From the NCBI GenBank assembly GCA_031551275.1, contig JAVBNX010000018.1, positions 5,501 through 69,500 of the forward strand: 64,000 bases of DNA, in the 5' to 3' direction. A model generated the notes under the pieces. It searched no databases, was not told the origin of the DNA, and saw nothing but the letters and a program-made list of their open reading frames with translations. The translations under genes were made by a program, and so were the position numbers. This document shows, piece by piece, positions 5,579 through 27,429 of the stretch (positions are counted from its first letter, which is position 1; every line of letters begins with the position of its first letter). Origin of the DNA: Rikenellaceae bacterium (GTDB taxonomy: Bacteria; Bacteroidota; Bacteroidia; Bacteroidales; Rikenellaceae).

Positions 5579-5586
5579 ATTTCAGA

Positions 5587-6837
5587 ATGGCCAGGGTGTC
5601 AAATAGCGTTTTCTTGTGCGGGATTTTCGTGATCGCCGCAGTCTTTTTTTGCGGCTGCAAAAACACGGAACCCCCCATGGATAAACTCGTCCAGAAGGCG
5701 CTGGACCGCTCGGTGGTCCAGTGCGAGGGGATGTACAAAAGCCTGGCCGCCACCCCCGGCCAATACCCCTACTCGGTCGACGGGAAGGGGCAATTGCGCA
5801 CCAGCGACCCGTGGTTCTGGTCGGGAGCCTTCTTCCCCGGCACGCTCTGGTACCTTTACGAATACACCGGCCAGCAGCGCATGGGCGAGATGGCCGAAAC
5901 GATGTCCCGGGGCCTCGAAAGCCAGAAGCTCAACCGCAACAGCCACGAAATAGGCTACTCGATCGGGTGCACGTTCTCCAATTCATTGCGCATCCTCGGG
6001 GATGAACACTCCAGGCAGACGGTGCTGACCGCCGCCTCCTCGCTGGCCTCGCAGTTCAACCCCACGGTGGGGTGCATCCGATCGTGGAACCACCCCTTCG
6101 CCTGCCGGTGGGAGTATCCGGTAATCATCGACAACGTCGTGTCGCTCAAATTGCTTCTGGACGCTTGGAAGCTGGACGGCAACCGGGAGTATTACCAAAT
6201 GGCCCTCTCCCACGCCGACAGGACGATCCAGAACCACTTCCGTCCCGATTACAGCTCCTGCCACGTGGTAAGCTACGATACCCTGAGCGGCAAGCCCCTG
6301 CTCAGGGAGACCTACCAGGGCCAGAGCGACAACTCGGCCTGGGCCAGGGGCCAGGCGTGGGGATTGTACGGCTTTACCATGCTTTACGCCGAAACCGGCC
6401 TGGACCGCTACCTGGAGCAGGCGTGCGGGATTGCCGATTTTCTGATCTCCCACCCCCGCCTGCCGCAGGACGGGATACCTTATTGGGACTTCGACGACCC
6501 GCAGATCCCCAACGCCCCCCGCGACGCCTCGGCAGGGGCGATCATGGCCTCGGCGATGGTACAACTGAGTACGCTGGCGCAGGGGCAGAGGGCGGAACGC
6601 TACAAGGCGATGGCCGAGCGGCAGATCCGCACGCTCTGTTCGGACGAGTACATGGCTCCCGCGGGGGAGAATTGCAACTACATCCTGCGCCACGGCGTAG
6701 GCTTCAAGCCTGCGGGCAGCGAGGTCGACGTGCCGCTCTGTTACGCCGATTACTACTTTGTCGAGGCGCTGGTACGCTACCGCACCCTCCACGGGAAGGA
6801 CGATTCGAGAAACAGCCAACTTGCAATCAAAAAATAA
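5587..6837 (+). CDS. GH88-like unsaturated glucuronyl hydrolase, lipoprotein
   Basis: The in-frame ATG at 5587 gives MARVSNSVFLCGIFVIAAVFFCGCK, a lipoprotein signal. The track's upstream extension overlaps the HTCS gene. Motifs DPWFWSGAFFPGTLWYLYEYTG and NSAWARGQAWGLYGF are typical of the GH88 (alpha/alpha)6 fold. Confidence 0.8.
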   Translation: MARVSNSVFLCGIFVIAAVFFCGCKNTEPPMDKLVQKALDRSVVQCEGMYKSLAATPGQYPYSVDGKGQLRTSDPWFWSGAFFPGTLWYLYEYTGQQRMGEMAETMSRGLESQKLNRNSHEIGYSIGCTFSNSLRILGDEHSRQTVLTAASSLASQFNPTVGCIRSWNHPFACRWEYPVIIDNVVSLKLLLDAWKLDGNREYYQMALSHADRTIQNHFRPDYSSCHVVSYDTLSGKPLLRETYQGQSDNSAWARGQAWGLYGFTMLYAETGLDRYLEQACGIADFLISHPRLPQDGIPYWDFDDPQIPNAPRDASAGAIMASAMVQLSTLAQGQRAERYKAMAERQIRTLCSDEYMAPAGENCNYILRHGVGFKPAGSEVDVPLCYADYYFVEALVRYRTLHGKDDSRNSQLAIKK

Positions 6838-6854
6838 TCCAAACTCAACCCTTT

Positions 6855-9800
6855 ATGAAAGACAACGACCTGACTAAAAAAAGGCCATCGAGGTGGATGC
6901 CTCTGGTGATGCTCCTGGGAGCGTTGATGCTCTCCCTGGGTGCAGCCGCCCAGCAGGTAGCTTCCGGCGTGGTGGTCGGAGGAGATCAGAAACCTTTGAT
7001 CGGTGCCACAGTGATCGAGAAAGGGACCACCAACGGGATGACCACCGGCCTGGACGGTAAATTCTCCCTGAAAGTGGCCCCCGGTGCGACCATCCTGGTA
7101 TCCTACATCGGGTATGAAACTCGGGAAATACCGGCGGCCAACGCCGTGAGTGCGACCATCGTCCTGTCGGAAGAATCCACGATGATGGAGAACCTGGTCG
7201 TCGTGGGATACGGCGCCCAGAAAAAAGAGAACCTGACCGGAGCGGTCGCATCGATCAATATCGCCGATATGGTCGACGGGCGTCCGGTAACCAGTGTCTC
7301 CTCCGCGTTGTCGGGGCTCAGCCCCGGCCTTTACGTCCAGCAGGCTACCGGACGGCCCAACGCCGACGGCTCCAACCTGCTGTTGCGCGGCCAGGGAACG
7401 CTCAGCGAGGATGTGAACAGCGCGAGCATGAGCAAGGCCGCCCCGATGATCGTCATCGACGGGATGGTCTCCACGATGAGCGATATGAACGCCCTCAACC
7501 CGATGGATATCGAGCAGATCTCGCTGCTGAAGGATGCGGCTTCCTCGTCGATCTACGGTTCGCGCGCGGCCAACGGCGTGATCCTGGTCAAGACCCGCCA
7601 GGGTGCCGAAAGCCGGTTTACCATCAACTACGCGGGCTATTGGGCCATGGCGCAGCCCTCCAACACGATCGAGACCGTGTCGAACTACGCCGACTACATG
7701 ACCTATTACAACGAGGCGCAACAAAACTCCTCCCCGGGAGCCTCGCCCCAATACAAGGATGCGACCATCCGCGCCTGGCTGGCCAACGACGATCCTTTGC
7801 GCTACCCCAATACCGACTGGCGGGACGAGATCTTCCAGAACGGGGTAATCAACAACCACTCGCTTTCGTTCAGCGGGGGAAGCAAGGAGATCAGGGCCTT
7901 CGGGTCGTTCGGTTACCTGCACAATCCGGGCATCATCGAGAACTCGACCTATGAGCAATACAACGGACGGATCAACGTGAGCGCCGACGTGAGGAAGTGG
8001 CTTACCCTGGGTGTCAACGCGCGCGGTTCGGTGGGCGACGCCGAGATGGGTTCCAAGGCGATGTCCAACCTGTTCGGCGGCATCGGCTCGCCGGGTATCG
8101 TCTACCGCCATCCCGACGGGCGCTACGGCGGCGCGGAAGCGACCGACGAGAGCCAGCAGATCCAGAGCCCGTTGTACGCCTTCAACAGCCGCCAGGGCAA
8201 CATCGTGAGCCGGGCGGTCCAATCGCGCTTCTTCGGAACGATCAGGCCCATGAAAGGCCTGACCGTCGAGGGTGCGTTCAACTACTCCTATACCGATATC
8301 ACGGAGCGCGAAACGCCGCTACTGGCCGAGATATGGAGCTTCCAGCGCAACGTGGTCATCAAAGAGAAGGCCGAGCACGACTATGCGCGCAACCGCCTCA
8401 ACGAGAGCGTACACGTACAGGGCGAGGTAATCGCACGCTACTCGACCACCTTTGCCGCCAAGCGCCTCAGCTTCGACGCCATGGCCGGTGCAAGCCAGGA
8501 GAAGACCAACGCGGGCTGGTTCGAAGCCCAGCGTTACGACCTGATAGACCCCAACCTGACCTCGATCAACGCGGCCACCGGCGAACAGATCGCCTCGGGG
8601 GTTGATCTGGGGGAAGGCTACGCCATGCGCTCCTATTTCGGGCGGGTCAACCTGGCCTGGGAGAACAAATACCTTCTGGAGGCCAACCTGCGGGTGGACC
8701 AGTCGTCGAAATTCGCACCCGACTACCGCACCGGTTGGTTCCCCTCGGTATCGGCAGGGTGGAGGATCGACCAGGAGAAATTCTTCGAGCCCCTCAAAAA
8801 GGTGGTCTCCAGCCTCAAGCTGAGGGCCTCCTACGGTTCGCTGGGTAATGAGAACATCGGCAACTACCAGTACCAGTCCAACTACACCAAAGATCCCTAC
8901 GTGCTCAACTATGCGTTGGCCAACGGGATGACCTATACGCTCTCCAACGCCGCTATCCAATGGGAATCGACCTACCTGGCCAACCTAGGGATCGACGTGG
9001 GCTTGTTCAACAACCGCCTGGAGGGGACCTTCGAGGTCTTCGACAAGATGTCCAAGAACGTTCTGGCCGTCTATCCCGCTCCCCTGCTGGTGGGTACGGC
9101 AAAGATCCCGGCCAGCAACGGGGCGCACATCAACAACCGGGGGCTCGAGTTGAGCCTCAAATGGAGGGACAGGATCGGCAAGGACTTCAACTATTACGTG
9201 AGCGGCAACTTCAGCTACATCCGCAACGAAGTGACCAAATACAAAGGGGACGAAAGGACCGTTTCCGGGGCCAACCTGGTCCAGGAGGGCCACCCGATCA
9301 ACGTGCAGTATGTCTACCGCGTCAGCAAGATCGTCAAAGACAGCGAGGATGTGGCCTATGTGCAGCAGATGATCGACAACGCCCCGTACGGCGGGGACGG
9401 TAAGAAACTCGACCCGTTCGCCGCGGTGGGAGGACGCCCCGGTTTGGGAGATTTCCTTTATACCGACATCAACGGCGACGGGGTTATCAACGACGACGAC
9501 AAGGTGCTGGTCGGATTCGGGCAGGTTCCCCCCATTACCTACGGTGCGCAGCTCGGGTGTTCCTGGAAAGGGATCGACTTCTCGGTCATGCTTCAGGGCA
9601 TCAAGGGGTATAAATGGCTCTGGCAGGACAACTTCAACATGGGCTACCTGAACTACGGCGGACCCATCAACAAGGAGTGGGCGGAAAACGCCTGGAGGCC
9701 ATCCAACCCCGAGGCCACCATGCCCAGGCTCAACATCCGCGGAACTGAGCAGAACAACGTGGAGAGCGACTACTGGGTGGCCGACAAATCGTACATGAGG

Positions 9801-9995
9801 ATCAAGAACATCCAGCTCGGCTACCAGTTCCCCAAAAAATGGACCGAAAAGATCCAGGTGTCCAGCGCAAGGATCTACGTGAGCCTGGAAAATTTCTTTA
9901 CCTTTACTAACTACAAGGGTATCGACCCCGAGGTAAGCGGAACCAACTATCCCACCCTCAAGCAGACCGTCTTCGGTGTGAACATCAATTTTTAA
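6855..9995 (+). CDS. SusC/RagA-family TonB-dependent outer-membrane transporter
   Basis: Start moved to the ATG at 6855 (MKDNDLTKKRPSRWMPLVMLLGALMLSLGAAAQQ). CarboxypepD_reg-like segment GATVIEKGTTNGMTTGLDGKFSLKV, plug segment NLVVVGYGAQKKENLTGAV, C-terminal barrel ending ...GVNINF. Confidence 0.92.
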   Translation: MKDNDLTKKRPSRWMPLVMLLGALMLSLGAAAQQVASGVVVGGDQKPLIGATVIEKGTTNGMTTGLDGKFSLKVAPGATILVSYIGYETREIPAANAVSATIVLSEESTMMENLVVVGYGAQKKENLTGAVASINIADMVDGRPVTSVSSALSGLSPGLYVQQATGRPNADGSNLLLRGQGTLSEDVNSASMSKAAPMIVIDGMVSTMSDMNALNPMDIEQISLLKDAASSSIYGSRAANGVILVKTRQGAESRFTINYAGYWAMAQPSNTIETVSNYADYMTYYNEAQQNSSPGASPQYKDATIRAWLANDDPLRYPNTDWRDEIFQNGVINNHSLSFSGGSKEIRAFGSFGYLHNPGIIENSTYEQYNGRINVSADVRKWLTLGVNARGSVGDAEMGSKAMSNLFGGIGSPGIVYRHPDGRYGGAEATDESQQIQSPLYAFNSRQGNIVSRAVQSRFFGTIRPMKGLTVEGAFNYSYTDITERETPLLAEIWSFQRNVVIKEKAEHDYARNRLNESVHVQGEVIARYSTTFAAKRLSFDAMAGASQEKTNAGWFEAQRYDLIDPNLTSINAATGEQIASGVDLGEGYAMRSYFGRVNLAWENKYLLEANLRVDQSSKFAPDYRTGWFPSVSAGWRIDQEKFFEPLKKVVSSLKLRASYGSLGNENIGNYQYQSNYTKDPYVLNYALANGMTYTLSNAAIQWESTYLANLGIDVGLFNNRLEGTFEVFDKMSKNVLAVYPAPLLVGTAKIPASNGAHINNRGLELSLKWRDRIGKDFNYYVSGNFSYIRNEVTKYKGDERTVSGANLVQEGHPINVQYVYRVSKIVKDSEDVAYVQQMIDNAPYGGDGKKLDPFAAVGGRPGLGDFLYTDINGDGVINDDDKVLVGFGQVPPITYGAQLGCSWKGIDFSVMLQGIKGYKWLWQDNFNMGYLNYGGPINKEWAENAWRPSNPEATMPRLNIRGTEQNNVESDYWVADKSYMRIKNIQLGYQFPKKWTEKIQVSSARIYVSLENFFTFTNYKGIDPEVSGTNYPTLKQTVFGVNINF

Positions 9996-10007
9996 CGAGT
10001 CGCGACG

Positions 10008-11750
10008 ATGAAAACATACAAAAAATACATAGGCATTTTGGCCGCGCTCGCGGCGATGCAGGGGTGCTACGACCTGGATATGTATCCCACCACCCAGATC
10101 TCGTCCGGAACCTTCTGGTTGGATGAGGAGGACGCCAAGGAGGGGATCATGTCGGTCTACGCGAACATGAACGAGGAGGGTTCTTATGGCTATTGCGTGC
10201 TGCAGGATACCTATACCGACGTGGCTCAGGGCCCCGGAAGCGCCCGCGAGATCGGTACGCTGACCGGAGCGGACGCCCACCTGGTCAACAACTGGCAGCA
10301 CACCTGGGAGGGCGTGCAAAGGGCCAACCACGTGATCGCCATGGTCTCCCCGATGGGGGAGGAGAAGATCAACCCCCTCTCCAAAGCCCGTATCCTGGGC
10401 GAGGCCTACTTCATGCGGGCGTTGTACTACTTCCACCTAACCGACCTGTTCGGGGACCTGCCCATCTACGACGAAAGCTGGGAGGTAACGGAGAATTTTA
10501 CCCGGATGTACCTGCCCCGCAGCCCCCAATCCGATGTGTGGGACTTTATCATCTCCTCCCTGGACAAGGCCGTGGAGAGCCTGCCGGTGGCGTGGCCCGC
10601 GAGCGATTACGGCCGGGCGACCAAAGGGGCCGCCTACGCCCTGAGGGGGAAGGCCAAACTCTGGAAAAAAGACTACAAGGGAGCCATTGCGGACTTCGAG
10701 GAGATCGTTTACAACAAGACCTACGAATTCGGCTACACCCTCTACCCCAATCTGATGACGCTGTTCCTGACCGCGGGACCCGTTCCCGGCGACAAGGAGA
10801 CGATCTTCGCCATCCAGGCCAGCGGGATGTTGAACAACAACCTCGGGACGAGGGTAAACGTGCTGTTCGGCAACCGGGGAACCTACCTCAACGCCCAGGC
10901 GACCTGTACGCCCTCGGTCGATCTGGCCGATATGTACGAGTACAAGGACGGCAAGCCTTTCAGTTGGACGGAGATCTATCCCGACTGGGACGACTACGAC
11001 CCCGTTACCAAGACCTATCCCCGCAAGGAGGAGGTATTCCGCGGGGCGATCTCGGGGGTTACCCTTACCAAGATGCCCGACACCACCGCGCTGGGTAAGC
11101 TCTACCGCAGCCGCGACCCGAGGCTCTGCCAGACCATCATCGTGCCCTGGTCGACCTACCTGGGCTGGTCGGGCTCGGCGGCTAAGAACTTGCTGTTGGC
11201 CGTGGCCGACGGGGGCTCGGTGGCCAACGGGTTCATCCCCCAGGACCGGGGCTACTGGACCCACTACTACCGCAAGTTCGTCTACACGGGCGATTTGAAC
11301 GGTACGGTTCCCAACAACCGCTACAACTGTCCCATCAACGTGCCCCTGATCCGGCTTGCGGACGTGCTGCTGATGCTCTCCGAGGCCTACAACGAGGACA
11401 ACCAGCTCGACAAGGCCATCATTGAACTCAACAAGGTCAGGGCCAGGTTCTCGACCGGTATGCCGGGGCTGAACAGCGGCCCGGCGTGGCTGGCGGTCGG
11501 TAACAAACAGCAGATGCAGCAGAGGATCATCAAGGAGCGCGCCCTCGAACTCCACGGCGAAGGCCACCGCTTCGGCGATCTGAGGCGTTGGGGTGTGGCT
11601 GAGGATCTGCTCGACCAGAGCAAGGTCAGGGCCGTGGACGGGATGCACCAGTTTACCCGCTCGTTCAAGGAGCGCAACTATCTGTGGCCCCTGCCGACCG
11701 AGGAGTTGATCAACTGTCCCAATCTTTTACCCAATAACAACGGCTGGTAA
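10008..11750 (+). CDS. SusD/RagB-family nutrient-binding lipoprotein
   Basis: 580 aa, immediately downstream of SusC. Lipobox LAAMQGC. Typical SusD TPR-like segments (RANHVIAMV, EAYFMRALYYFHL, LLMLSEAYNE, ERALELHGEGHRFGDLRRWG). Confidence 0.92.
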   Translation: MKTYKKYIGILAALAAMQGCYDLDMYPTTQISSGTFWLDEEDAKEGIMSVYANMNEEGSYGYCVLQDTYTDVAQGPGSAREIGTLTGADAHLVNNWQHTWEGVQRANHVIAMVSPMGEEKINPLSKARILGEAYFMRALYYFHLTDLFGDLPIYDESWEVTENFTRMYLPRSPQSDVWDFIISSLDKAVESLPVAWPASDYGRATKGAAYALRGKAKLWKKDYKGAIADFEEIVYNKTYEFGYTLYPNLMTLFLTAGPVPGDKETIFAIQASGMLNNNLGTRVNVLFGNRGTYLNAQATCTPSVDLADMYEYKDGKPFSWTEIYPDWDDYDPVTKTYPRKEEVFRGAISGVTLTKMPDTTALGKLYRSRDPRLCQTIIVPWSTYLGWSGSAAKNLLLAVADGGSVANGFIPQDRGYWTHYYRKFVYTGDLNGTVPNNRYNCPINVPLIRLADVLLMLSEAYNEDNQLDKAIIELNKVRARFSTGMPGLNSGPAWLAVGNKQQMQQRIIKERALELHGEGHRFGDLRRWGVAEDLLDQSKVRAVDGMHQFTRSFKERNYLWPLPTEELINCPNLLPNNNGW

Positions 11751-11757
11751 TACTTTT

Positions 11758-12963
11758 ATGCGAAATTACATTCTTTTAGCCTTCCTGCCCCTGGCAATTT
11801 TCTCCTGCAAGCAGGCCCCTCAACAGGCTTACTCAGACAGCATGGATCCGGCAGCCATACGCCGGGTGGTCAACGATGCGATCGTATGGCAGACGCAGAA
11901 CATGCCCCAGGCGGGCCGCCACGAGTGGAATCCCCAATACACCGGCTGGGCCGACGGGGTCTTCCTGAGCGCGGTCTCCGACTGGGCCGAATACGATAAC
12001 GAGCGGAGCCTCAGGGAGTGGTACCAGGGGGTCGCCGAAAAGGTGCGTTGGGAACCTGCCTGGCGCACGATCAACCCCGCCAACGACGTGGCCGTGAGCC
12101 TGGCTTACGCGAAGATCTGGCAGAACGCCGAGATCAAGGAGCGCTTCCCTCTCTCCGAGATCGGGGAGTGGAACACCGACAAGGTACGCGAGTTGTTCGG
12201 CGGCTGGGGGCCTCTGATCCCCACCATCGAGAGGCTGGACTACCAGATGAAGTACTGCCCGCAGACCGACGACAGCCTTCGTTTCGAGAACCCGCTCAAC
12301 CACGAGCGCTGGTGCTGGTGCGACGCGCTGTACATGGCCGCGCCGACCTACGTGGCGTTCGCCAACATTACAGGCAACCAAGCGTACCTCGACTTCATGG
12401 AGAAGGAGTTCTGGCTTACCTTCGATGTGCTCTACTCCCCCCAGGACAGCCTGATCTACCGCGACACCCGCTTTATCGGGCAAAAGGAGAAAAACGGTGC
12501 CAAAGTCTTCTGGGGCCGGGGCAACGGCTGGGTGTTGGGCGCGCTGGCGCGTGTGATCGATCTGCTGCCGGCGGACTATCCCACCCGGGACCGCTACGTG
12601 GAGATGTACCAGCAGATGATGGCCCGGGTCGCCTCCCTGCAGGATGAGAACGGCTACTGGCATACCAGCATGCTCGATACGGAGAACTACACCTCCCCAG
12701 AGACCAGCGCGACGGGCTTCTTTACCTACGCGCTCTGGTGGGGGATCAACCGGGGGCTGATGGGCGAGGAGTATGTGCCGAAGGCCGAAAAAGCGTGGAA
12801 AGCGATGGTCGCGGCGGTCCATCCCGGCGGCAAACTGGGCTATGTGCAGCCCATCGGCGACGCGCCCGAGAACATATCCTTTGAAAAAAACGAGGTGTAC
12901 GGCACGGCCGCCTTCGCCCTGGCGGGGCTTGAGGCTGCCCGGTACGCCGAAACGATCGATTGA
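11758..12963 (+). CDS. GH105-like unsaturated rhamnogalacturonyl/glucuronyl hydrolase, lipoprotein
   Basis: 401 aa. Lipobox LAIFSC. YteR/YesR-type motifs WCWCDALYMAAP and FWGRGNGWVLGALARV. Confidence 0.8.
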   Translation: MRNYILLAFLPLAIFSCKQAPQQAYSDSMDPAAIRRVVNDAIVWQTQNMPQAGRHEWNPQYTGWADGVFLSAVSDWAEYDNERSLREWYQGVAEKVRWEPAWRTINPANDVAVSLAYAKIWQNAEIKERFPLSEIGEWNTDKVRELFGGWGPLIPTIERLDYQMKYCPQTDDSLRFENPLNHERWCWCDALYMAAPTYVAFANITGNQAYLDFMEKEFWLTFDVLYSPQDSLIYRDTRFIGQKEKNGAKVFWGRGNGWVLGALARVIDLLPADYPTRDRYVEMYQQMMARVASLQDENGYWHTSMLDTENYTSPETSATGFFTYALWWGINRGLMGEEYVPKAEKAWKAMVAAVHPGGKLGYVQPIGDAPENISFEKNEVYGTAAFALAGLEAARYAETID

Positions 12964-12965
12964 CC

Positions 12966-14132
12966 ATGACATCCAGAGAGAGAATTCAATTAGCCGTCGA
13001 CCACAAAGAGGCCGATAGGGTACCCTATGACCTGGCCGGGACGACCGTGACCGGGATCTGCGTCGGGGCATTCAAAAACGCCATGCGCGAGAGGGGACTC
13101 TCCACCGAATTCCAGAAGGAGGTGGATCCCATTTCGCAGATCGTAACCCCCGTCGAGGAGACGCTCGAGGTGTTGAAATCCGACACGCGCCGCATCGGTG
13201 CGCGCCGGGTAATCGACTACGAGGATATCCGCACCAAGCAGGGGACGGAGTGGTCGCTGGTCGACCATTGGGACTGCCTGTGGAAACTGGACGAGACCAA
13301 GGACCTCTACTACAACCAGTTTACACACCCGTTGGAGAGCTACGACTCGATTACCGAGGGGTTGCAGAAATGGCACGTGCCAGACTGGAGCAAATACGTG
13401 CCCCAGATGGAGAAGGACATCGCCGAGCAGGCTCCCTTCCTGGACGGATACGCCGGGATCGCCGACAGGAATTGCGCGGGGCTGACCGAGATGTCGCTCC
13501 GCATCCGGGGCTACACCAAGTGGTACATGGACCTGTTCCTCGATCCCGAGGGGGTGGACGCGCTTCTGGAACAGATTACCCAACACAAGCTCGACTACTG
13601 GAAGTCGCTGTTCGACTGGATGGATAAAAACGGGGTAACCCAGAAGATCGACGTGGTCAGCGAGTGCGACGATCTGGGAACCCAGTCCTCGACGCTGATC
13701 GACCCCGACCAGTTGCGCGAGCTGGTCATCCCGCGTTTCAAGCGGATCTGGGCTTATACCAAGCAGCGCGCTCCCCACGCCAAAAACTTCATGCACACCT
13801 GCGGGGCGGTCAGGCCCCTGCTGCCCGATCTGATCGAGGCGGGGCTGGATATCTACAACCCGGTGCAGTTTACCGCCAAGGACATGGACCTGGCGGGATT
13901 GAAGCGCGACTTCGGGAAAGACCTGGTCTTCTGGGGCGGGGGGATCGACACCCAGTCGACCCTGTGCAAGGGTACCCCCCAGCAGGTCTCGGACGAGATC
14001 AAGCGCATACTCGACATCATGGCCCCGGGCGGAGGCTTCGTCTTCGCCCCGGTGCACAACATTCAGGACGACGTTTCGGCCGCCAACTTCTGGGCCATGT
14101 GGGACACGTTGCAGGAGTACGGAAAATATTAG
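12966..14132 (+). CDS. uroporphyrinogen decarboxylase (URO-D)/MtaA-like family protein, cytoplasmic
   Basis: The first ATG is at 12966 (the track starts at TTG 12960). No signal peptide. N-terminus MTSRERIQLAVDHKEADRVPYDL and C-terminus PGGGFVFAPVHNIQ are typical of the URO-D TIM-barrel family. An H-x-C motif (FMHTCGAV) resembles the Zn site of MtaA-type methyltransferases. Confidence 0.7.
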   Translation: MTSRERIQLAVDHKEADRVPYDLAGTTVTGICVGAFKNAMRERGLSTEFQKEVDPISQIVTPVEETLEVLKSDTRRIGARRVIDYEDIRTKQGTEWSLVDHWDCLWKLDETKDLYYNQFTHPLESYDSITEGLQKWHVPDWSKYVPQMEKDIAEQAPFLDGYAGIADRNCAGLTEMSLRIRGYTKWYMDLFLDPEGVDALLEQITQHKLDYWKSLFDWMDKNGVTQKIDVVSECDDLGTQSSTLIDPDQLRELVIPRFKRIWAYTKQRAPHAKNFMHTCGAVRPLLPDLIEAGLDIYNPVQFTAKDMDLAGLKRDFGKDLVFWGGGIDTQSTLCKGTPQQVSDEIKRILDIMAPGGGFVFAPVHNIQDDVSAANFWAMWDTLQEYGKY

Positions 14133-14138
14133 GATACC

Positions 14139-15395
14139 ATGAAAAACTACCGCTGGACGATCTGCGCCCTGTTGTTCTTCGCCACCACGATCAACTACCT
14201 CGACAGGGCGGTGATCGGCCTGTTGAAAGAGACCTTGACCGGGGAGTTCAACTGGAGCGAGAGCGACTACGGCAACATCATCATCTGTTTCCAGGTCGCC
14301 TACGCCGTTTCGCTGCTGGGCGTGGGCTGGATCATCGACAAGGTGGGGACCAAACTGGGTTACACCCTTTCGATGATCGTCTGGAGCGTGGCCGCCGTCT
14401 TCCACGCCTTCGCGCGCGGGACTGTGGGCTTCGGCGCGGCAAGGGCCATGCTGGGCGCGGGCGAGGCGGGTAACTTCCCCGCCGCCAACAAGACCGTGGC
14501 CGAGTGGTTCCCCTTGAAGGAGCGCGCCCTGGCCACCGGGATCTACAACTCGGGATCGACCATCGGGGCCATCGTCGCGCCGATCGCCGTGCCGTTCATC
14601 GCCATCCAGTGGGGATGGAAATGGGCCTTTATCGCCACGGGTCTGATCGGGTTTATCTGGCTGGTCTTCTGGTTGCTTTGCTACCGCGCGCCGGACAAGG
14701 CGCAGGTGGAAGCCATGCAGGCCGAGCAACCCGAACCGGAGGAGTCCACCGCCAAGGTAAGCTGGTTCAGGCTGTTGGGTTACAAGCAGACCTGGGCTTT
14801 CGTGGTGGGGAAATTCTTCTCCGACCCCGTCTGGTGGTTCTTTTTGTTCTGGCTTCCCGCCTTCCTTAAATCGGAGTACGGGCTGACCGGGATGCAGGTC
14901 TCGCTGCCCTTGATCGTGGTCTACGCCATCTCCTCGGTGGGGAGCGTGTTCGGCGGCTGGCTGCCCAAACGGATGATCGAGGCGGGCAGAAGCGAGTCGG
15001 GCTCACGCAAGACCTCGATGCTGGTCTACGCGTTGATCCCGCTCCTGGTGCTGGTGGCCCAATGGGCGGGACGGTTCAATATGTGGTACGCGATCATTAT
15101 CATCGCGCTGGCTTGCGCGGCGCACTGCGCGTGGATGGCCAATTTGTTCGCCACGGTCTCTGATATGTTCCCCAAGAAGGCCGTCGCCTCGGTAACGGGC
15201 ATCGGCGGGATGGCCGGATCGGTGGGCGGGATCCTGATCGCCTGGGCCGCCGGTCTGCTCTTCGACCACTACAAGGCGATGGGCGATATCCGCGTGGGCT
15301 ACGGGATCATGTTCATGGTCTGCGCAGTGGCCTACCTGATCGCCTGGCTGATCATGCATTTCCTGGTCCCGAAATACAAGCGCCTCGATATATGA
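14139..15395 (+). CDS. MFS transporter, hexuronate (ExuT)-like
   Basis: 418 aa with about 12 predicted hydrophobic segments. N-terminus WTICALLFFATTINYLDRAVIGLLK is characteristic of the ACS/ExuT subfamily. Confidence 0.85.
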   Translation: MKNYRWTICALLFFATTINYLDRAVIGLLKETLTGEFNWSESDYGNIIICFQVAYAVSLLGVGWIIDKVGTKLGYTLSMIVWSVAAVFHAFARGTVGFGAARAMLGAGEAGNFPAANKTVAEWFPLKERALATGIYNSGSTIGAIVAPIAVPFIAIQWGWKWAFIATGLIGFIWLVFWLLCYRAPDKAQVEAMQAEQPEPEESTAKVSWFRLLGYKQTWAFVVGKFFSDPVWWFFLFWLPAFLKSEYGLTGMQVSLPLIVVYAISSVGSVFGGWLPKRMIEAGRSESGSRKTSMLVYALIPLLVLVAQWAGRFNMWYAIIIIALACAAHCAWMANLFATVSDMFPKKAVASVTGIGGMAGSVGGILIAWAAGLLFDHYKAMGDIRVGYGIMFMVCAVAYLIAWLIMHFLVPKYKRLDI

Positions 15396-16657
15396 AAAAG
15401 CTGATCTTTGCGGCGGTCGGTTTGTTGGCGGCCGCCTGCTGCCGGGTTGCTGAACCGAAGCCCGAACCGGGCGCGTTTTGCGTGAACATCCCCGCGGAGC
15501 ATCCCCGGATGGTTTTGAACAAGGCTGAGTTGGAAGCCCTTAAAGCGCATGTCGCCTCGGCGGAACAGCCCTGGAAAGGCGCGTGGGAAAACCTGCAGGC
15601 CACGGTCGAAAAGTACGCTTCCGACGAGTGGCAGCCCGATGTGTACATGGGCGACAACACGATGGATTACTACAAAGCCCTGATGCGGGACGGGGACGCG
15701 GCACGCGATCTGGCGATCGCCTACTGGGTCTCCGGCGAGGAGAGGTACGCCCGAAAAGGGGCGGCGATCCTCGCGGCCTGGCTGCCCAAAGAGGGTGCGC
15801 TGCCCGGCACGGCCTTCGATATGGAGGTCAACTACCCCAACCTGGGGATGCTGACCGGGCGGAGTATTTTTCCGTACCTCTACGCCTACGATCTGTTGAA
15901 AGGGGCGGGTAAGATCCCCGCCGGGGCGGATGCCAGGCTCGAGGAGTGGCTGCGCAGCCGCGTGGAGTACGTCAAGCAAGGCTCCCTGCGTTGGCGCGAC
16001 AGCAACTACTTTGACCGCCAATGGTACCAGAACCACCTGGTGGCCGACGCGATGGGCCTGATGGCGATCGCCGTGACCCTGAGGGACAGCGCGCTGATGC
16101 AGTATGCGGTCGACTCGCCCATCAACGAAAGGGACGTTAAGGAGTTGGTCTCCGGAATAATCCTGATGGAGGGCCAGCCAAAATACTACCGCGAGCCGGG
16201 CGACTGGCCCACCCAAACGGGCGAGATCGCCGACCGCTACCGCCATTTCGCCATAGGCGGACATTACAAAGATTATGTAACTTTGCCCGACCGGGGACTG
16301 CAATACTGCGGGCTTTCGTCGAGCCTGCTGCTCTCCATCGCCGAGATGGGACGGCACAACGGGATCGACGTCTACCAATACGTCGCGCCCGAGGGGGAGA
16401 ACCTCAAGCTGCCGATGCTGTTCTATTCGGAGTTCTACATCACGCACGATTCGTCGGTCAACGGCGGGTTCTATGCCGGGGAGGACGACTGGATCAACGC
16501 TGGGGACGCCGACACGTGGGAGATGTGGGAGGTGGCCAATAAACGGTGGCCCGGCGAGGAAAAATTCCGCGAAGTGTTGCGCGTCAACCGGGGGAATTAC
16601 CTTTCGATGCACCAACTGGGGCCGGTTTCGCTGACCCATGCGGAAAAAATAGATTAA
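15392..16657 (+). CDS. polysaccharide lyase-like (alpha/alpha)-toroid lipoprotein (alginate_lyase/PL5-PL38-like), paralog 1
   Basis: 421 aa. ATGA start/stop overlap with the MFS gene. Lipobox LAAAC. Motif WYQNHLVADAMG contains an Asn-His pair like the catalytic NH of PL5-type lyases, and GEIADRYRHFAIGGHY gives an Arg/Tyr segment. CAZy family not assigned. Confidence 0.55.
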   Translation: MKKLIFAAVGLLAAACCRVAEPKPEPGAFCVNIPAEHPRMVLNKAELEALKAHVASAEQPWKGAWENLQATVEKYASDEWQPDVYMGDNTMDYYKALMRDGDAARDLAIAYWVSGEERYARKGAAILAAWLPKEGALPGTAFDMEVNYPNLGMLTGRSIFPYLYAYDLLKGAGKIPAGADARLEEWLRSRVEYVKQGSLRWRDSNYFDRQWYQNHLVADAMGLMAIAVTLRDSALMQYAVDSPINERDVKELVSGIILMEGQPKYYREPGDWPTQTGEIADRYRHFAIGGHYKDYVTLPDRGLQYCGLSSSLLLSIAEMGRHNGIDVYQYVAPEGENLKLPMLFYSEFYITHDSSVNGGFYAGEDDWINAGDADTWEMWEVANKRWPGEEKFREVLRVNRGNYLSMHQLGPVSLTHAEKID

Positions 16658-16658: not shown

Positions 16659-18599
16659 ATGAAAAAAATCCTTTTGCTGTTGTGCCTTTTGGCCGGGATG
16701 AAGGCCTTCGGGGCCTTTCCGGAGCGTCCACGGTTGGTCCTTTCGGCCTCGGACCTGGTGGAGTTGAGAGAGCATGTGGAGTCGGAGAAGCAGCCCTGGA
16801 AATGGGCCTGGGAGAACCTGCAAAAGGATGCCGAGCGGTATATGGCGGAGAAATTCCAGCCCATGCCCTACTTCGGGCCCGACAGCAAAAAGTGCTACGA
16901 CGTTTTGATGCGGGACGCCTACGCGGCCCGCGACCTGGCCATCGCCTATTACGCCTCGGGCGAGAAGCGCTACGCCGAAAAGGCCGCCATGATCCTGGCC
17001 GCGTGGCTGCCCAGGGAGGGCCCCCTGCCCGGGACGGCGTTCGATCCCGAGTTGAACTACTCGAGCCTGGGGATGCTTGCCGCCCGCTCGATCTTCCCCT
17101 ACCTCTACGCCTACGACCTGTTGAAAGGGGGCGGCATGATCCCCGAGGGGGCCGATGCGAGGCTGGAGGAGTGGTTGAGAAGCCGTGCGGAGCAAATCCG
17201 CGAGGGAGCCCGCCGGTGGAAGGATAACGACTACTTCGATAAGCAGTATTACCAGAACCACATCGTCGCCGACGCGATGGGCCTGATGGCGATCGGGATC
17301 ACTTTGGGCGACGAACAGATGGTCCGGTACGCGGTCGACTCGCCCGGGAACGAGCGCGATCTGAAAGATTTGATCGCCGGGATCATCCTGATGGAGGGCG
17401 AGAAACCCTACTACCGCGAGCCGGGCGACTGGCCCGTGCAGACGGGCGAGATCGCCGACCGCTACCGCCACTTCGAGATCGGGGGGCACTACAAGGACTA
17501 TGTGACCAAGCCCAACCGGGGGCTGCAGTACTGCGGGCTCTCGACCACGCTGTTGATGATCGCCGCCGAGATGGGGCGTTTGAACGGGATCGACCTGTGG
17601 GGCTATGTCGCCCCGGGGGGCGAAACGCTGCGCCTGCCGTTGGAGTTCTACTCGGGATTCTATTACCTGAAAAGCGATACGATCCAGGGCGGGTTCTACA
17701 CCGGGGAGAAACCCTGGATCAACGGCAACGAGTCGTGCACCTGGACGATGTGGGAGGTGGGCAACAAGCGCCTGCCCGGCGAAAAGAAATTCGAGGCGGT
17801 CCTGGAGGCCAACCGGGGCGGGAAGTATATGCCCCTGCATTTGCTGGGCCCCGTGGCGTTGACCCACGCCGTGGCCCTGACTCCGGAGCAGGAGATGGCT
17901 GCCCTCAAATTGCTTCCCTGGAAGACAACCTTTGAGGACGGTATGAGAGGCGATTGGCAGGAGAAATGGCATCTGGATGGCGAGGTCGGGACGGTAAAAA
18001 CCTCGCCCAAAGGGCTGGAAATGAAGGCCGGGCCCCAGGAGAAGAACAACGCCGACCACATGGTTTTGTGGGCCAAACCGGAGTTCAAGGGCCCCGTCAG
18101 GATCGAATACGACTTTACCCGGTTGGATAAATCGAAGGCCGGGACGGTCAATATCATCTACCTGATGGCCACCGGAAGCGGCCAGGGCCCCTACAAGGAG
18201 GATATTTTCGAATGGAACGACCTGCGCAAAGTCCCCGCGATGGCTACCTATTTCGACCACATGAACGCCTACCACATCAGCTACGCGACCGTGGACCCGG
18301 AGGGCAGCTACGTACGTGCGCGCAGATATATGCCCCTGCTGAACAAGGGATTGAACGGCACGGCTTTAACGCCCGAGTACATCCATGCCGATATGTTCAA
18401 GCCCGGCGTGAAGTACCACATCACAGTCATCCAACACGGCGACAGGCTCTTTCTGGAGGCGACCGGCAAGGGGAAGACCGAGCTCTTCTGGTTCGATACC
18501 TCGACCCTGCCGCCTTTGGACCGCGGGCGCGTAGGCCTGCGGTTGATGTGGACGCGCAACTCGCTCTTCTCGGATTTCTCGGTCGGAACGCTGGAATAA
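16659..18599 (+). CDS. polysaccharide lyase-like toroid protein, paralog 2, with C-terminal YesU/DUF1961-like (ConA-like) domain
   Basis: 646 aa with an SPI-type signal (MKAFGAF). The first ~410 aa are about 70-75 percent identical, by eye alignment, to the upstream gene (YYQNHIVADAMG, GEIADRYRHFEIGGHY). The extra ~230-aa C-terminal domain (nt ~17901-18599) resembles DUF1961 by recall. Confidence 0.55.
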   Translation: MKKILLLLCLLAGMKAFGAFPERPRLVLSASDLVELREHVESEKQPWKWAWENLQKDAERYMAEKFQPMPYFGPDSKKCYDVLMRDAYAARDLAIAYYASGEKRYAEKAAMILAAWLPREGPLPGTAFDPELNYSSLGMLAARSIFPYLYAYDLLKGGGMIPEGADARLEEWLRSRAEQIREGARRWKDNDYFDKQYYQNHIVADAMGLMAIGITLGDEQMVRYAVDSPGNERDLKDLIAGIILMEGEKPYYREPGDWPVQTGEIADRYRHFEIGGHYKDYVTKPNRGLQYCGLSTTLLMIAAEMGRLNGIDLWGYVAPGGETLRLPLEFYSGFYYLKSDTIQGGFYTGEKPWINGNESCTWTMWEVGNKRLPGEKKFEAVLEANRGGKYMPLHLLGPVALTHAVALTPEQEMAALKLLPWKTTFEDGMRGDWQEKWHLDGEVGTVKTSPKGLEMKAGPQEKNNADHMVLWAKPEFKGPVRIEYDFTRLDKSKAGTVNIIYLMATGSGQGPYKEDIFEWNDLRKVPAMATYFDHMNAYHISYATVDPEGSYVRARRYMPLLNKGLNGTALTPEYIHADMFKPGVKYHITVIQHGDRLFLEATGKGKTELFWFDTSTLPPLDRGRVGLRLMWTRNSLFSDFSVGTLE

Positions 18600-18605
18600 A
18601 ATAAA

Positions 18606-18630
18606 GAAGGGAGCCTCAAAGGCTCCCTTC
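18606..18630. terminator. bidirectional hairpin between convergent genes
   Basis: gaagggagcct/caa/aggctcccttc forms a perfect 11-bp stem, sitting between the lyase paralog 2 stop and the methyltransferase stop. Confidence 0.5.
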
Positions 18631-18634
18631 CCGG

Positions 18635-19408
18635 TTACAGTTTCCTGCCTATGTAGAACACATAGCCGTAAAACTCCTTGTATTTGTGGTAGAGTCCCAT
18701 TTCATGGCGTTGGCTGGCGATCAGCGACTCGGCGGTGGGATTTCCTGCGTATTTCTTCAGGAAGATCTCCTGCGCGGCCGCCTGCGGGGCGTAGAAATCC
18801 TCGGTCCAGCAGCTCTCCGGCAGGATAAAGTGCGCGACCGGGACATACCCCGCCCGTTGCATCTGGGCGACGTTGTCGGGGATCGTCGTGATCAGGGGGT
18901 AGGAGTCCATCCAGAACTTTTCGATCTCGGCGGGACGCTCGGCCGTAAACCACGACGCCTCGGTCACGGCGACGTAGCCGCCGGGTTTGAGCATGCGCCG
19001 CCACTCGGTCAGGCCCCTCTCGAAGCCGATGTTGTAGATCGCGCCCTCCGACCAGATCAGGTCCAGCTCTTCATCCCCGAAGGAGAGGTCGTCCATCGAG
19101 CCGACCACGCCCTGCACCCTGTCTTGGAGGCCCAGGGCGGCGGCGTTCGCGTTGAACCGGTCGATAAAGGCGGGGAACAGGTCGATGCCGGTAATATGTC
19201 CCTGGACGTGCTGCGCCAGGGTCATGGTCTGGCCGCCCGTGCCGCAGCCGATATCGGCGATGCGGGATTGGGGAGTCAGGTTATCGATGTATTCCAGCGC
19301 CCTGAGGGTCATTTCGGGGCTTCCCGGGCCTTGGCGTTCAACGCCTGAGAAGTATTCGCAGATCAGGTTGAAGTCGAAATCGTGAACGGTTTTATATTCG
19401 TTTTCCAT
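18635..19408 (-). CDS. class I SAM-dependent methyltransferase
   Basis: 257 aa. SAM motif [13 protein letters not shown], followed by LKPGGYVAV (post-II/III motifs). Confidence 0.85.
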
Positions 19409-19589: not shown

Positions 19590-21746
19590 TTACAGCATCG
19601 GTCTGAGGTTTTCCCACTTCACATCCCAGTTGCCGTCCTGCGGGAAGCCGGGGTTGGGGATGGCCGGCGCACCCGTCCATCCGGCGCACATCATCGCCAC
19701 CGTGGCCAGGGTCCCGCCGTTGCCCGAGATGGAGATACGCATGGCAGGACTGTTGTAGTTGTGCCCGTTGGGCTTGTACTGGTTGGCGGACTCCTCTTTC
19801 AGCAGGGCCTCGAGGGCCGTTTCGGGCTGGTTCAACCGTATGGCGCACATGGCGGTCATCGGATAGTCCCATCCCCAGGTCGAGGGCCAGTTCCAGTTTT
19901 GCATGACCCAGCCCAACGTGTTGCGCATCACGGCGGTGTCCACCAAAGGGGTCTGGGGCAGCACGCCGAAGGCGGACAGTACGCTCATGTGGTCCGAGGT
20001 AAAACGCTCGTCCTGGTAGGTCTGGGGGACCGACTCGGCGGCGAGGTAGAGCCCGTCCTTTTGGGCCAGGGGGGAGAGTTTGGATAGGACCTCGTCCCAT
20101 TTCTTCTCGCGGGGCAGGCCCATCCTTTCACGCCATTGCTGCGCGAGGTCCAGCGCGTAATGCCAGTAGGCCAGCTCGTAGGGCGGGTTGACGGTCTCCT
20201 CGGGGGTCAGGCTCTCCTGCGCGGGGATCACGCCCTTGAGGATATAGCGGTCGGCTTGGGGATCGTAATCGGCAAAATCGGCCATGAATGCCGCCGTTTC
20301 AAAGACGATGTCCTTGTATTTTTCAAGCGTCTCGGGGGTCGGGTCGGCGCGGTACAACAACTCGGCGAAGTACAAGGGATGCGGCTGCTGCCAGATCAGG
20401 AACGAGGAGATGTAGGAGGGCGACTCGCCCGCCCAGGGATCGGTCATCTTCATCCACCTGACCCCTTCGAAGCCCTGCCTTCGGGCGATCTCCCGCGCTG
20501 CGGGCATGGCAGACCCGTACCAGGGCATGATTCCGGCCAAACGTTCGGGACGGTTCCACAGCGCGTAGTGGATGCCGTGCCACCACGTCATCTCGAGGTG
20601 GAACTTGCCGAACCAGGAGTTGTAGCACAAGGCGGTCTCCTGGGGCGGCATCGACCCGGAATTCATCGCGGCGGTAATGTATTGCGAGAGCACGACGCGC
20701 CGCTCCAGTTCTTTGGCCCTCGGATCCTTGCAGGCGGAAAAGTCGACCGCCCCGCCGCTCTTCCAGAAAGTTTCCCAGCTTTTGGCGCAGGCCTTTTGAT
20801 CCGCGTTGAAACCGGCGGGAGAGGCTGTCGCGGCCGGGGGTTCGGGTGCGAATTCGCACGTAAAGGCGATCACATCGCCCGAGAGGGCCGAGAGGCGGAA
20901 TTTGTGGAGCTCGGGCTGCGTAAGCTCGCAGTCGCCCTGCCAGCAGATCCGGATATAGTAGGCCGTCGTGTCGAGGGTGTGCTCGATCAGGGCTTGCCCT
21001 TTGTCCTGTTTTACGACGCGGGAGGTGTGCTTTTCAGGGCTGTCCCAGTCGCACGCGTCGTCGGAGTGCAGGCCCGTGGGGTAGGGCAGGCTCAGATCGA
21101 CGGACATCGCCCCTTCCGATACCCTTTGGGAGCGGACCCGCGCGGCGATCCGGTCGTTGTCGGGACTGCACAGGGTGGTTACCTCGGTGGGTACGCCGCA
21201 AACCTGATAGCTGCTCGTGATCTCCCCGCGCCACATATCCAGCGTCTGGTCGATATCGGTAACCTGCTCCGGGGTAACTTTCGCCCCGTTGTCGGCGACC
21301 ATATGCAGCCCGACAAGCCCTAAGTGAAGCCTGTGGGGGTTGGTGCGGAACCACCGCCCCGCGCCCTGCCCGCCTGTGGGATCGGCTGCGTCGAACTCGG
21401 GAGCCAAACGGAAATCGAAGTAGGCGTAAGGCTCCTCGCGTCCCCGGAAATTGTAGTTTTTAAGGTACTGGTCGGGCGTGTAGTGCATCACGTCAGGGAA
21501 GGAGTGCCAGCCCCACTCCGACATCGTGCCCAGGCAAACGCCCTGTTGGTAGAGCTCAGGGAAAGTCTGTAGCCCCGTGGCGTCGACCGTCATGGCGAAG
21601 GCCCCGTTGCCCACCGTGAGCGACGAGTAAGGCTCGAATCCGGTTATGTGGGGGTTATTGCGCGTGACCAGGGCATGGCGGTCGATCTTCCCGCTGCCGC
21701 ACGCCGCTAAAAAGAGCGTCAAGGCGAAAAGGACTATTTTTTTCAT
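19590..21746 (-). CDS. large lipoprotein of unassigned family, possibly a glycoside hydrolase-like (alpha/alpha) barrel protein
   Basis: 718 aa. Lipobox LFLAACGSG. Trp/aromatic-rich conserved-looking segments (MSEWGWHSFP, FHLEMTWWHGIHYALWNRP, FLIWQQPHPLYFAE). The function is guessed from context only. Confidence 0.4.
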   Translation of the reverse strand: MKKIVLFALTLFLAACGSGKIDRHALVTRNNPHITGFEPYSSLTVGNGAFAMTVDATGLQTFPELYQQGVCLGTMSEWGWHSFPDVMHYTPDQYLKNYNFRGREEPYAYFDFRLAPEFDAADPTGGQGAGRWFRTNPHRLHLGLVGLHMVADNGAKVTPEQVTDIDQTLDMWRGEITSSYQVCGVPTEVTTLCSPDNDRIAARVRSQRVSEGAMSVDLSLPYPTGLHSDDACDWDSPEKHTSRVVKQDKGQALIEHTLDTTAYYIRICWQGDCELTQPELHKFRLSALSGDVIAFTCEFAPEPPAATASPAGFNADQKACAKSWETFWKSGGAVDFSACKDPRAKELERRVVLSQYITAAMNSGSMPPQETALCYNSWFGKFHLEMTWWHGIHYALWNRPERLAGIMPWYGSAMPAAREIARRQGFEGVRWMKMTDPWAGESPSYISSFLIWQQPHPLYFAELLYRADPTPETLEKYKDIVFETAAFMADFADYDPQADRYILKGVIPAQESLTPEETVNPPYELAYWHYALDLAQQWRERMGLPREKKWDEVLSKLSPLAQKDGLYLAAESVPQTYQDERFTSDHMSVLSAFGVLPQTPLVDTAVMRNTLGWVMQNWNWPSTWGWDYPMTAMCAIRLNQPETALEALLKEESANQYKPNGHNYNSPAMRISISGNGGTLATVAMMCAGWTGAPAIPNPGFPQDGNWDVKWENLRPML

Positions 21747-24132: not shown

Positions 24133-24145
24133 CGTTCGCTCGAAA

Positions 24146-24889: not shown

Positions 24890-24892
24890 GGA

Positions 24893-27415: not shown

Positions 27416-27429
27416 ATCTCCTTTTGTTA

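Follow-up and report, generated by a model that had tools for sequence, protein, structure and literature searches.

We analysed a 64,000-nucleotide stretch of a Rikenellaceae bacterium genome (contig JAVBNX010000018.1; the window) with a focus on the gene at positions 12966-14132, which encodes a protein matching the UroD superfamily and lies within a polysaccharide utilization locus (PUL). The genes of this PUL, together with the codons and the hairpin discussed below, are listed by their positions in the window.

1438-5445, minus strand: hybrid two-component sensor/regulator (HTCS; Pfam Reg_prop, Y_Y_Y, HisKA, HATPase_c, Response_reg and HTH_18)
5587-6837, plus strand: glycoside hydrolase family 88 (GH88) unsaturated glucuronyl hydrolase lipoprotein at the start of the operon (lipobox-type N-terminus; Pfam Glyco_hydro_88; PDB match 3WIW)
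6855-9995, plus strand: SusC-like TonB-dependent transporter (CarbopepD_reg_2 and Plug domains; mapped start MKDNDLTKK)
10008-11750, plus strand: SusD-like glycan-binding lipoprotein (Pfam SusD_RagB and SusD-like_3)
11758-12963, plus strand: GH105-like unsaturated uronyl hydrolase with a signal peptide (Pfam Glyco_hydro_88, E=5e-76)
12966-14132, plus strand: UroD-superfamily protein of 388 residues, proposed substrate:corrinoid (MT1-type) methyltransferase
13794-13802, plus strand: codons of His277-Thr278-Cys279, holding predicted metal ligands (phmmer against 4AY7, hhalign and conservation)
13965-13967, plus strand: codon of Cys334, an earlier candidate ligand, not conserved
14055-14057, plus strand: codon of His364, predicted third metal ligand (hhalign and conservation)
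14139-15395, plus strand: major facilitator superfamily (MFS) transporter of the anion:cation symporter, D-galactonate/hexuronate type (Pfam MFS_1; TIGR00893, E=2.5e-66)
15392-16657, plus strand: PLa, a secreted (alpha/alpha)-toroid polysaccharide-lyase-like protein (Pfam Alginate_lyase, E=1.5e-17)
16659-18599, plus strand: PLb, a 65% identical paralogue of PLa that carries DUF1961/DUF6250 at its C-terminus; final operon gene
18604-18632, no strand assigned: 13-bp G+C-rich hairpin with T-runs, after the last gene of the operon

Inspection of the locus reveals a SusC/SusD pair, carbohydrate-active enzymes and a dedicated HTCS regulator, with operon genes that are co-oriented and closely spaced, which together define a PUL. 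The HTCS gene lies upstream of the operon in divergent orientation and is its likely regulator. Successive genes are separated by 17, 12, 7, 2, 6, -4 and 1 nt. The GH105-like hydrolase gene ends (TGA, 12961-12963) 2 nt before the ATG at 12966, where the initial annotation of this DNA had counted 3 nt, and 6 nt (14133-14138), as stated there, precede the transporter start at 14139. No terminator-like site was found on the plus strand within the operon, and the hairpin beyond its last gene is likely a bidirectional terminator that closes it. With gaps of 17 nt or less and a terminator hairpin only past the last gene, the 12966-14132 gene is almost certainly co-transcribed with the PUL, in line with the initial annotation. 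A sigma-70 promoter scan gave 3 matches against 4.6 expected and is uninformative; it does not cover Bacteroidetes promoters.

The operon is larger than first described. The GH88 gene, nested in a longer mechanical open reading frame (ORF) at 5077-6837 between the HTCS and SusC genes, had gone unmentioned; the best Protein Data Bank (PDB) match of its product is 3WIW, a heparin-type unsaturated glucuronyl hydrolase (E=2.3e-101). The best solved relative of the 11758-12963 hydrolase is the unsaturated 3S-rhamnoglycuronyl hydrolase 4CE7 (E=2.7e-60), and we therefore call this enzyme GH105-like. The PUL thus holds two unsaturated-uronyl hydrolases, one GH88 and one GH105-like; it contains no sulfatase. 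PLa and PLb have no PDB sequence match, and a low-confidence model built from three sequences (predicted local distance difference test, pLDDT, 53) matches only uronate lyases of the polysaccharide lyase (PL) PL38/PL17/PL5 type (TM about 0.45), which supports no assignment more specific than a uronate lyase-like toroid.

The gene at 12966-14132 is an intact plus-strand ORF with an ATG start and a TAG stop, and its G+C content (59.8%) is close to that of the window (59.5%). Direct reading of the predicted N-terminus, MTSRERIQLAVDHKEADRVPYDL, shows no hydrophobic signal segment, consistent with the cytoplasmic location first proposed. Comparison with orthologues gives a dN/dS of 0.04-0.16, with dS near saturation, and the gene is under purifying selection. 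The nearest homologues of the protein come from Alistipes metagenome-assembled genomes (MAGs; 81-83% identity), and the RpoB encoded in the window is 87% identical to that of Alistipes indistinctus. An identical protein is also present on one 6.6 kb contig from a different sample.

To place the protein we compared it with profiles and structures of the UroD superfamily. Pfam URO-D (PF01208) matches with E=6.9e-20 and 71.8 bits, above the cut-off of 23.9, which bears out the family membership originally assigned; the match is confined to the C-terminal half (residues 181-385). The top PDB sequence match by phmmer is MtaA of Methanosarcina mazei (4AY7). An AlphaFold2 (AF2) model (pLDDT 80.5; predicted TM score, pTM, 0.85) contains the UroD barrel and is most similar to the same structure (E=3e-14), followed by HemE and, weakly, MetE; matches to MtaA and HemE structures range from E=3e-14 to 1e-7 with TM of 0.56-0.72. 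The MtaA-like fold named in the initial annotation thus leads both the sequence and the structure searches. In contrast, the NCBIfam hemE equivalog TIGR01464 does not match the window protein at E<=0.01, although it does match the neighbouring MtaA-like (MT2) proteins of relatives, and HemE chains in the PDB cover just 40-50 C-terminal residues (E=0.4-0.8). HemE identity, listed at the outset as an alternative, is therefore rejected at the sequence level. Scores against curated models are 48.8 bits for TIGR01463 (mtaA_cmuA; cut-off 235.4) and 47.2 and 31.8 bits for NF040654 and NF041608 (cut-offs 400 and 600). Given no HemE match and scores far under the MtaA/MtbA/CmuA cut-offs, the protein is assigned by sequence comparison to a UroD-superfamily branch apart from HemE and MtaA/MtbA/CmuA.

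This branch is large. A profile built from 18 homologues retrieves 1026 clusters (50% identity) at E<=1e-30 among 1.84 billion representatives; the family clusters listed are nearly all 370-415 residues long, and in the loci examined the family occurs mostly in Bacteroidales MAGs, almost every time together with a carboxylate or sugar transporter. Homologues are named 'uroporphyrinogen decarboxylase' by Joint Genome Institute (JGI) annotation pipelines. The only solved MT1 enzyme that scores in PDB searches is CdmB (9RUI), with E=0.045-0.46 over the last 65 residues.

An alignment of 155 family sequences was used to locate residues that could bind metal. His277 is His in 153/153 aligned members, position 279 is Cys in 114, Asp in 39 and Glu in 1, position 364 is His in 145/153, and Asp235 and Asp236 are conserved in 142 and 153 members, respectively. 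His277 and Cys279 belong to the segment FMHTCGAV (residues 275-282), and phmmer places both opposite zinc ligands of MtaA (4AY7). Profile alignment by hhalign with MT2 proteins encoded near relatives (probability 99.5%, E=3e-23) sets the same two residues on the MT2 His-x-Cys and His364 on the third Cys of MtaA-type MT2 proteins (FVFAPVH against FVLSSGC). The third-ligand position of the window protein is never Cys, being Gly356 by phmmer or His364 by hhalign, and the MtaA triad is not reproduced. We predict His277-Cys/Asp279-His364 as the metal site of the family, with zinc as the probable metal. The alternation of Cys and Asp at position 279 points to a ligand rather than a nucleophile, and, compared with the thiolate-rich site of MtaA, a His-Cys/Asp-His set would suit Lewis-acid activation of oxygen.

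The zinc site read from the sequence at first was therefore correct in its His-x-Cys half, which aligns with the MtaA ligands around an invariant His277, and incorrect in its distal Cys, for which His364 is the predicted replacement. That Cys, Cys334 in the segment STLCKG (residues 331-336), is Cys in 5/155 family members, Pro in 102, and K, S or R in close homologues, and is ruled out as a zinc ligand by conservation. Cys104 was likewise ruled out as a core ligand: it is invariant in close homologues yet present in 12/155 sequences of the wider family.

Genomic context was examined in 80 loci from species-representative genomes and in others from metagenomes, giving 82 non-redundant loci for counting. 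A neighbour-joining tree separates the family into three clades, with the window protein in clade A. An MFS gene adjoins the family gene in 61/82 loci, and every linked MFS scanned is of the D-galactonate/hexuronate type. Other neighbours include a Tat-signal GFO/IDH/MocA oxidoreductase (42 loci), a LacI/GntR-type regulator (17), an aldo-keto reductase (16) and a fusion of xylose-isomerase-like and 3-keto-disaccharide-hydrolase domains (14). Clade-A contexts contain GH88/GH105, GH78 and GH106 rhamnosidases, PL8, PL9-like and PLa/PLb homologues, and the family gene sits within a PUL in the window and in loci L014 and L015. The clade-B cassette (as in L001, L003, L019 and L021) is very regular and consists of the Tat-signal oxidoreductase, the MFS and the UroD-like gene, sometimes with DUF6807 or GH123; its oxidoreductase weakly resembles glycoside 3-dehydrogenase, and clade-B contexts hold neither lyases nor GH88/GH105.

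A stand-alone corrinoid protein is encoded within 10 kb of the family gene in 10/82 loci (L006, L009-L012, L016, L017, L054, L061 and L068). Among the 11 informative clade-A loci, seven carry a corrinoid protein, an MtaA-like MT2 and a Met_synt_B12-type activation protein, a trio found within about 4 kb of the family gene and on the same strand. The corrinoid proteins of clade A are stand-alone and consist of B12-binding_2 and B12-binding domains, and the MT2 beside the family gene has 335 residues and a full His-x-Cys...Cys site. The MFS of the window is 69% identical to that of one such Alistipes locus (L011). The gene orders observed are given below, where X is the family homologue, CoP the corrinoid protein, Act the activation protein and AKR an aldo-keto reductase.

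Alistipes: regulator-AKR-X-MFS-CoP-Act-MT2
L006: X-MFS-CoP-MT2-Act
Paludibacter L016 and L017: AKR-MFS-X-Act, then AraC, CoP, MT2, MtaB and RACo
L054 (clade C): CoP, MT2-like, URO-D plus thioredoxin, homocysteine S-methyltransferase, CobW, MFS, X

At least four distinct gene orders are present, and two clade-C lineages contribute arrangements. Stand-alone corrinoid proteins are expected to be few per Bacteroidales genome, and four or five independent juxtapositions would then be far beyond chance. In the corrinoid operons of Alistipes and L006, the family member is the sole candidate MT1. An Rfam scan of the window and of L006, L012, L016 and L090 returned tRNAs only and no cobalamin riboswitch.

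Several of these loci hold further genes of interest. L016 (15132-19193) and L061 (13999-17923) come from Bacteroidales MAGs, one of which is a Paludibacter sp., and in both the gene for MtaB, a methanol:corrinoid methyltransferase of full length (Pfam E=7.6e-160), lies with that of a RACo-type reductive activator beside lyase and GH88 genes. This MtaB suggests methanol use by glycan degraders outside the acetogens and methanogens, and a methanol branch would fit methyl-esterified uronates. In L054, positions 3507-12762 form one operon that also includes the xylose-isomerase-like/3-keto-disaccharide-hydrolase fusion, a PF02574 homocysteine S-methyltransferase and a CobW-type GTPase; the set resembles a modular methionine synthase that an imported donor would supply with methyl groups. 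A creatininase-family (PF02633) gene occurs in both loci sampled for distant members (L101, 6430-7185; L105, 14615-15580), directly downstream with an overlap in L101 and, in L105, also downstream but about 5.4 kb away. The UroD-like gene of these two loci adjoins a sugar ATP-binding cassette (ABC) or tripartite ATP-independent periplasmic (TRAP) transporter.

Coupling to a B12 domain is also seen within a single polypeptide. The 648-residue protein P0386 consists of a complete family domain, 37% identical to residues 1-388 of the window protein (E=7e-75), followed by B12-binding_2 and B12-binding domains. It retains every conserved family motif and the terminal GKY, and its B12 part bears the cobalt-ligand motif DLHDIG (DxHxxG). 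This fusion speaks directly for a family that acts on a corrinoid bound to protein; the window protein itself is unfused.

The 64 kb window, searched by tblastn at E<=10, contains no corrinoid protein, MtaA-like MT2, MtaB, activation protein or aldo-keto reductase, in agreement with the missing corrinoid partner noted from the outset. The distribution of the corrinoid genes in gut Alistipes would explain this absence. Very many gut assemblies encode proteins 79-94% identical to the corrinoid protein of the Alistipes loci (the collection lists corrinoid protein P0171 in over 2000 index blocks), and in common gut Alistipes the CoP-Act-MT2 module is fixed at a site flanked by a C11 peptidase gene and glutamine synthetase III. 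The regulator-AKR-X-MFS cassette, on the other hand, varies in position: it lies beside the module in L009-L012, inserted directly upstream of the fixed module site in L012, and beside PL8/PL9-like lyases in a common gut lineage (L090). These varying sites, together with the L012 insertion, indicate a mobile cassette and a fixed corrinoid module. By analogy, the window genome is predicted to carry CoP, MT2 and Act elsewhere, at its own C11 peptidase-glutamine synthetase III locus. As a separate observation, the module in gut Alistipes assemblies (L092-L098, genes at about 10001-12383) has no donor-side methyltransferase beside its corrinoid protein, and a literature search found no description of a function for it.

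The clade-A corrinoid linkage, the P0386 fusion and the conserved Alistipes module support the reading that the window protein is probably a metal-dependent, donor-side (MT1-type) methyltransferase of a corrinoid system. More tentatively, and with somewhat less than even confidence, we propose that it is a B12-dependent O-demethylase for imported methylated sugar acids, a new UroD-fold MT1 branch in anaerobic Bacteroidales including gut Alistipes. The hexuronate/galactonate-type MFS and the uronyl hydrolase, rhamnosidase and lyase neighbours argue for a sugar-acid substrate. The most economical reading of the substrate would be an O-methylated uronate, or a keto-acid derived from it, from a rhamnose- or uronate-containing glycan; 4-O-methyl-glucuronate is a guess, one candidate among several. 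The O-demethylation idea raised at first is largely supported by the corrinoid, MT2 and activation neighbours of orthologues and by the B12 fusion, and nothing favours the alternative raised with it, decarboxylation of a keto-uronate.

We infer the direction of methyl transfer, the substrate and the acceptor in the scheme that follows. Secreted lyases and the GH88/GH105 hydrolases would break down a uronic-acid-containing glycan, and the adjacent anion-type MFS would bring in the methylated acidic sugar product. A metal, probably zinc, held by His277-Cys279-His364 would bind this substrate and polarise its methyl-oxygen bond, such that Co(I) of a separate corrinoid protein could take the methyl group and leave an ordinary sugar acid for central catabolism. 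The MtaA-like MT2, with its full His-Cys-Cys zinc site, would then hand the methyl group on, probably to homocysteine or another thiol as acceptor, while the MetH-type activation protein would repair oxidised cobalt.

A number of observations weigh against this proposal. The window lacks a corrinoid protein, MT2 and activator over its 64 kb, and four informative clade-A loci (the window, L014, L015 and L090) have no corrinoid genes at distances up to about 10 kb. Outside clade A, most loci likewise show none within 10 kb, including all of the approximately 30 clade-B loci, and two distant members (P0387 and P0375), which adjoin ABC or TRAP transporters, have none within 8 kb. Where MtaB is co-located, in L016 and L061, the proximity could be due to a common glycan source, whose methyl esters would yield methanol, and not to direct partnership. 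At the level of the protein, scores against the curated MtaA/MtbA/CmuA models fall far below the cut-offs, similarity to CdmB is marginal (E=0.045, C-terminal 65 residues only), and His364 rests on the profile alignment, as phmmer instead sets the third Cys of MtaA opposite Gly356; the AF2 model is weak around residues 356-366 (pLDDT 56-68). Finally, known UroD-type MT1 enzymes use aryl ethers and halides, which are easier substrates than an unactivated alkyl methyl ether.

Comparison with known systems places these features in context. MtaA (4AY7) shares with the window protein the UroD TIM-barrel fold and the aligned His-x-Cys zinc ligands and, like the proposed enzyme, partners a separate corrinoid protein. 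The two differ in that structural alignment gives 17% identity, the N-terminal 130 residues of the window protein, with extra beta-hairpins, are unaligned, and the third Cys ligand of MtaA is replaced, most likely by His364. MtaA moreover transfers a methyl group from cobalt to a thiol (MT2), whereas the window protein is proposed to transfer one from a donor to cobalt (MT1), and a true MtaA-like MT2 is separately encoded in related operons. The proposed functional class is that of OdmB, VdmB, MtvB, MtoB and CdmB, substrate-specific MT1 enzymes, some with zinc, that load a corrinoid protein and whose genes occur together with those for this protein, an MT2 and an activator (PMC13222342). UroD-type MT1 enzymes and the window protein both have extensions among the first beta-strands, and the weak similarity to the C-terminal 65 residues of CdmB includes the terminal GKY. 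In contrast to the site predicted for the family, CdmB has no metal and carries Phe where the family has His364 (phmmer alignment). The known UroD-type MT1 enzymes act on aryl methyl ethers and halomethanes in acetogens, Desulfitobacterium and archaea, whereas the gene studied here lies next to an acidic-sugar transporter gene in a PUL of Bacteroidales; a further difference is that the Alistipes activator is a domain of MetH type dependent on S-adenosylmethionine (SAM) and not a RACo/RamA ATPase. CmuA fuses a UroD-type methyltransferase domain to a B12-binding domain, as in P0386, but acts on chloromethane in aerobic methylotrophs and is thereby, as well as by its fusion, unlike the window protein.

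Parallels to methionine synthases are also apparent. MetE has a UroD-like barrel with a His/Cys/Glu/Cys zinc site and is a weak structural match to the model of the window protein. MetH-like parts in related operons comprise the B12-binding_2 and B12-binding domains, Met_synt_B12 and, in L054, the S-methyl_trans homocysteine domain. The pterin-binding domain is absent from all annotated loci; the methyl source would be an imported methylated compound and not methyl-tetrahydrofolate. With respect to sugar demethylation, the sole enzymes retrieved from the literature are O2-dependent cytochrome P450s of marine aerobes, and those of marine Bacteroidetes O-demethylate 6-O-methyl-D-galactose (PMC6292453). 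Like the proposed system, they are encoded with glycan-degradation genes and lift a methyl block on catabolism. Unlike it, they have an unrelated fold, depend on O2 and NAD(P)H and release formaldehyde, whereas the proposed system would be oxygen-free and would conserve the methyl group. Kountz and Balskus describe mlp clusters with MtaA-like proteins, mostly in Firmicutes, and mention neither sugars nor Bacteroidetes (PMC10418091). A literature search turned up neither a corrinoid-dependent sugar demethylase nor any work on this family in PULs, consistent with the initial remark that the fold has no characterised role in uronate polysaccharide catabolism.

The alternative that best survives, though we consider it unlikely, is a corrinoid-independent metal enzyme of sugar-acid catabolism, with corrinoid proximity reflecting co-regulation around a methyl-bearing glycan. 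One version is a KduI analogue that isomerises the 4-deoxy-5-keto-uronate formed by GH88/GH105, with the aldo-keto reductase of relatives standing in for KduD. Most loci do pair the gene with a carboxylate or sugar transporter and sugar enzymes and have no corrinoid gene within 8-10 kb (clade B, L014, L015, L090, P0387 and P0375), the AKR-X-MFS cassette recurs beside GH88/GH105 and lyases, and the window ORFs scanned showed neither kduI nor kduD. In L016 and L061, in addition, the MtaB/MtaC/MtaA-like methanol system is complete and requires no additional MT1. Such an enzyme would nevertheless leave unexplained the B12-binding fusion of P0386, the standing of the family member as sole MT1 candidate in the Alistipes and L006 operons, and the L054 operon with its corrinoid protein, homocysteine methyltransferase and CobW. 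The isomerase role also misfits the family as a whole, since clade B lacks lyases and GH88/GH105, and no isomerase or dehydratase among UroD-superfamily members is known to us. The chemistries described for the superfamily are uroporphyrinogen decarboxylation and methyl or alkyl transfer (PMC10418091, PMC13222342).

A corrinoid-dependent MT1 acting on a non-sugar donor appears less probable still; candidate donors are small methylated acids and methoxylated aromatic acids set free from the glycan, for example ferulate and vanillate. All characterised O-demethylating UroD-type MT1 enzymes use aryl methyl ethers (PMC13222342), which speaks for such a donor, and the neighbours of P0375, an RraA-like protein and a TRAP transporter, could be read as aromatic or organic-acid catabolism. 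Also in favour, the partner MFS proteins give weaker matches to aromatic-acid:H+ symporters (TIGR00895, E=7.6e-20 to 2.9e-30), but the window MFS fits the D-galactonate/hexuronate family far better (2.5e-66 versus 7.6e-20). The neighbours are moreover sugar-specific (GH88, GH105, GH78, GH106, GH123, lyases, glycoside-3-dehydrogenase-like oxidoreductases and LacI/GntR regulators), and the PUL holds no esterase or aromatic-ring catabolic gene. As for a HemE placed in the PUL by chance, its Pfam URO-D match and the JGI labels of homologues are outweighed by the missing TIGR01464 match, the restriction of the Pfam match to the C-terminal half and of HemE structures to 40-50 residues, a metal-ligand pattern that HemE does not need, and linkage to sugar transporters but never to haem genes, none of which was seen among the window ORFs scanned, such that this explanation has virtually no likelihood.

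Outside the PUL, the window holds housekeeping and fimbrial genes. A third secreted Alginate_lyase (Pfam) paralogue, with about 32% identity, is encoded 10 kb away at 28496-30319; none of the three paralogues has a PDB sequence or NCBIfam match, and together they may form an undescribed lyase family. Converging with the end of the PUL, and separated from it only by the 18604-18632 hairpin, is a class I SAM-dependent methyltransferase gene (18635-19408, minus strand) that is probably unrelated to the operon. An Mfa-like fimbrillin cluster (21811-28275, minus strand) encodes Mfa_like_1 proteins of 804 and 840 residues and a 281-residue Mfa2-like anchor, and two ORFs of 718 residues (19590-21746) and 483 residues (28382-29833) have no Pfam match. 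Further along, five tRNA genes (44606-46815) flank the EF-Tu gene (45375-46571) upstream of rpoB and rpoC (50004-58118), the usual arrangement of the str/rif region.

Methyl ethers on sugars such as 4-O-methyl-glucuronate, 6-O-methyl-galactose and the 2-O-methyl-fucose and 2-O-methyl-xylose of rhamnogalacturonan II block glycoside hydrolases and downstream catabolism, and the family described here is a concrete candidate for their removal by strict anaerobes of gut, rumen, sediments and digesters. If the proposed O-demethylase function is true, the family would represent a corrinoid MT1 that is new in ligand set, substrate class and host group, an oxygen-free counterpart to the P450 sugar demethylases, and corrinoid methyltransferase systems would reach beyond acetogens and methanogens to primary glycan degraders. 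The orphan CoP/MtaA-like/activation module of gut Alistipes would gain a function, and the widespread mis-annotation of homologues as 'uroporphyrinogen decarboxylase' would be corrected. Fibre use by Bacteroidales would be tied to vitamin B12 supply, and glycan methyl groups would pass to methionine or volatile methyl-sulfur compounds. Methylated glycans of dietary or microbial origin would be a B12-dependent one-carbon or methionine source in the gut.

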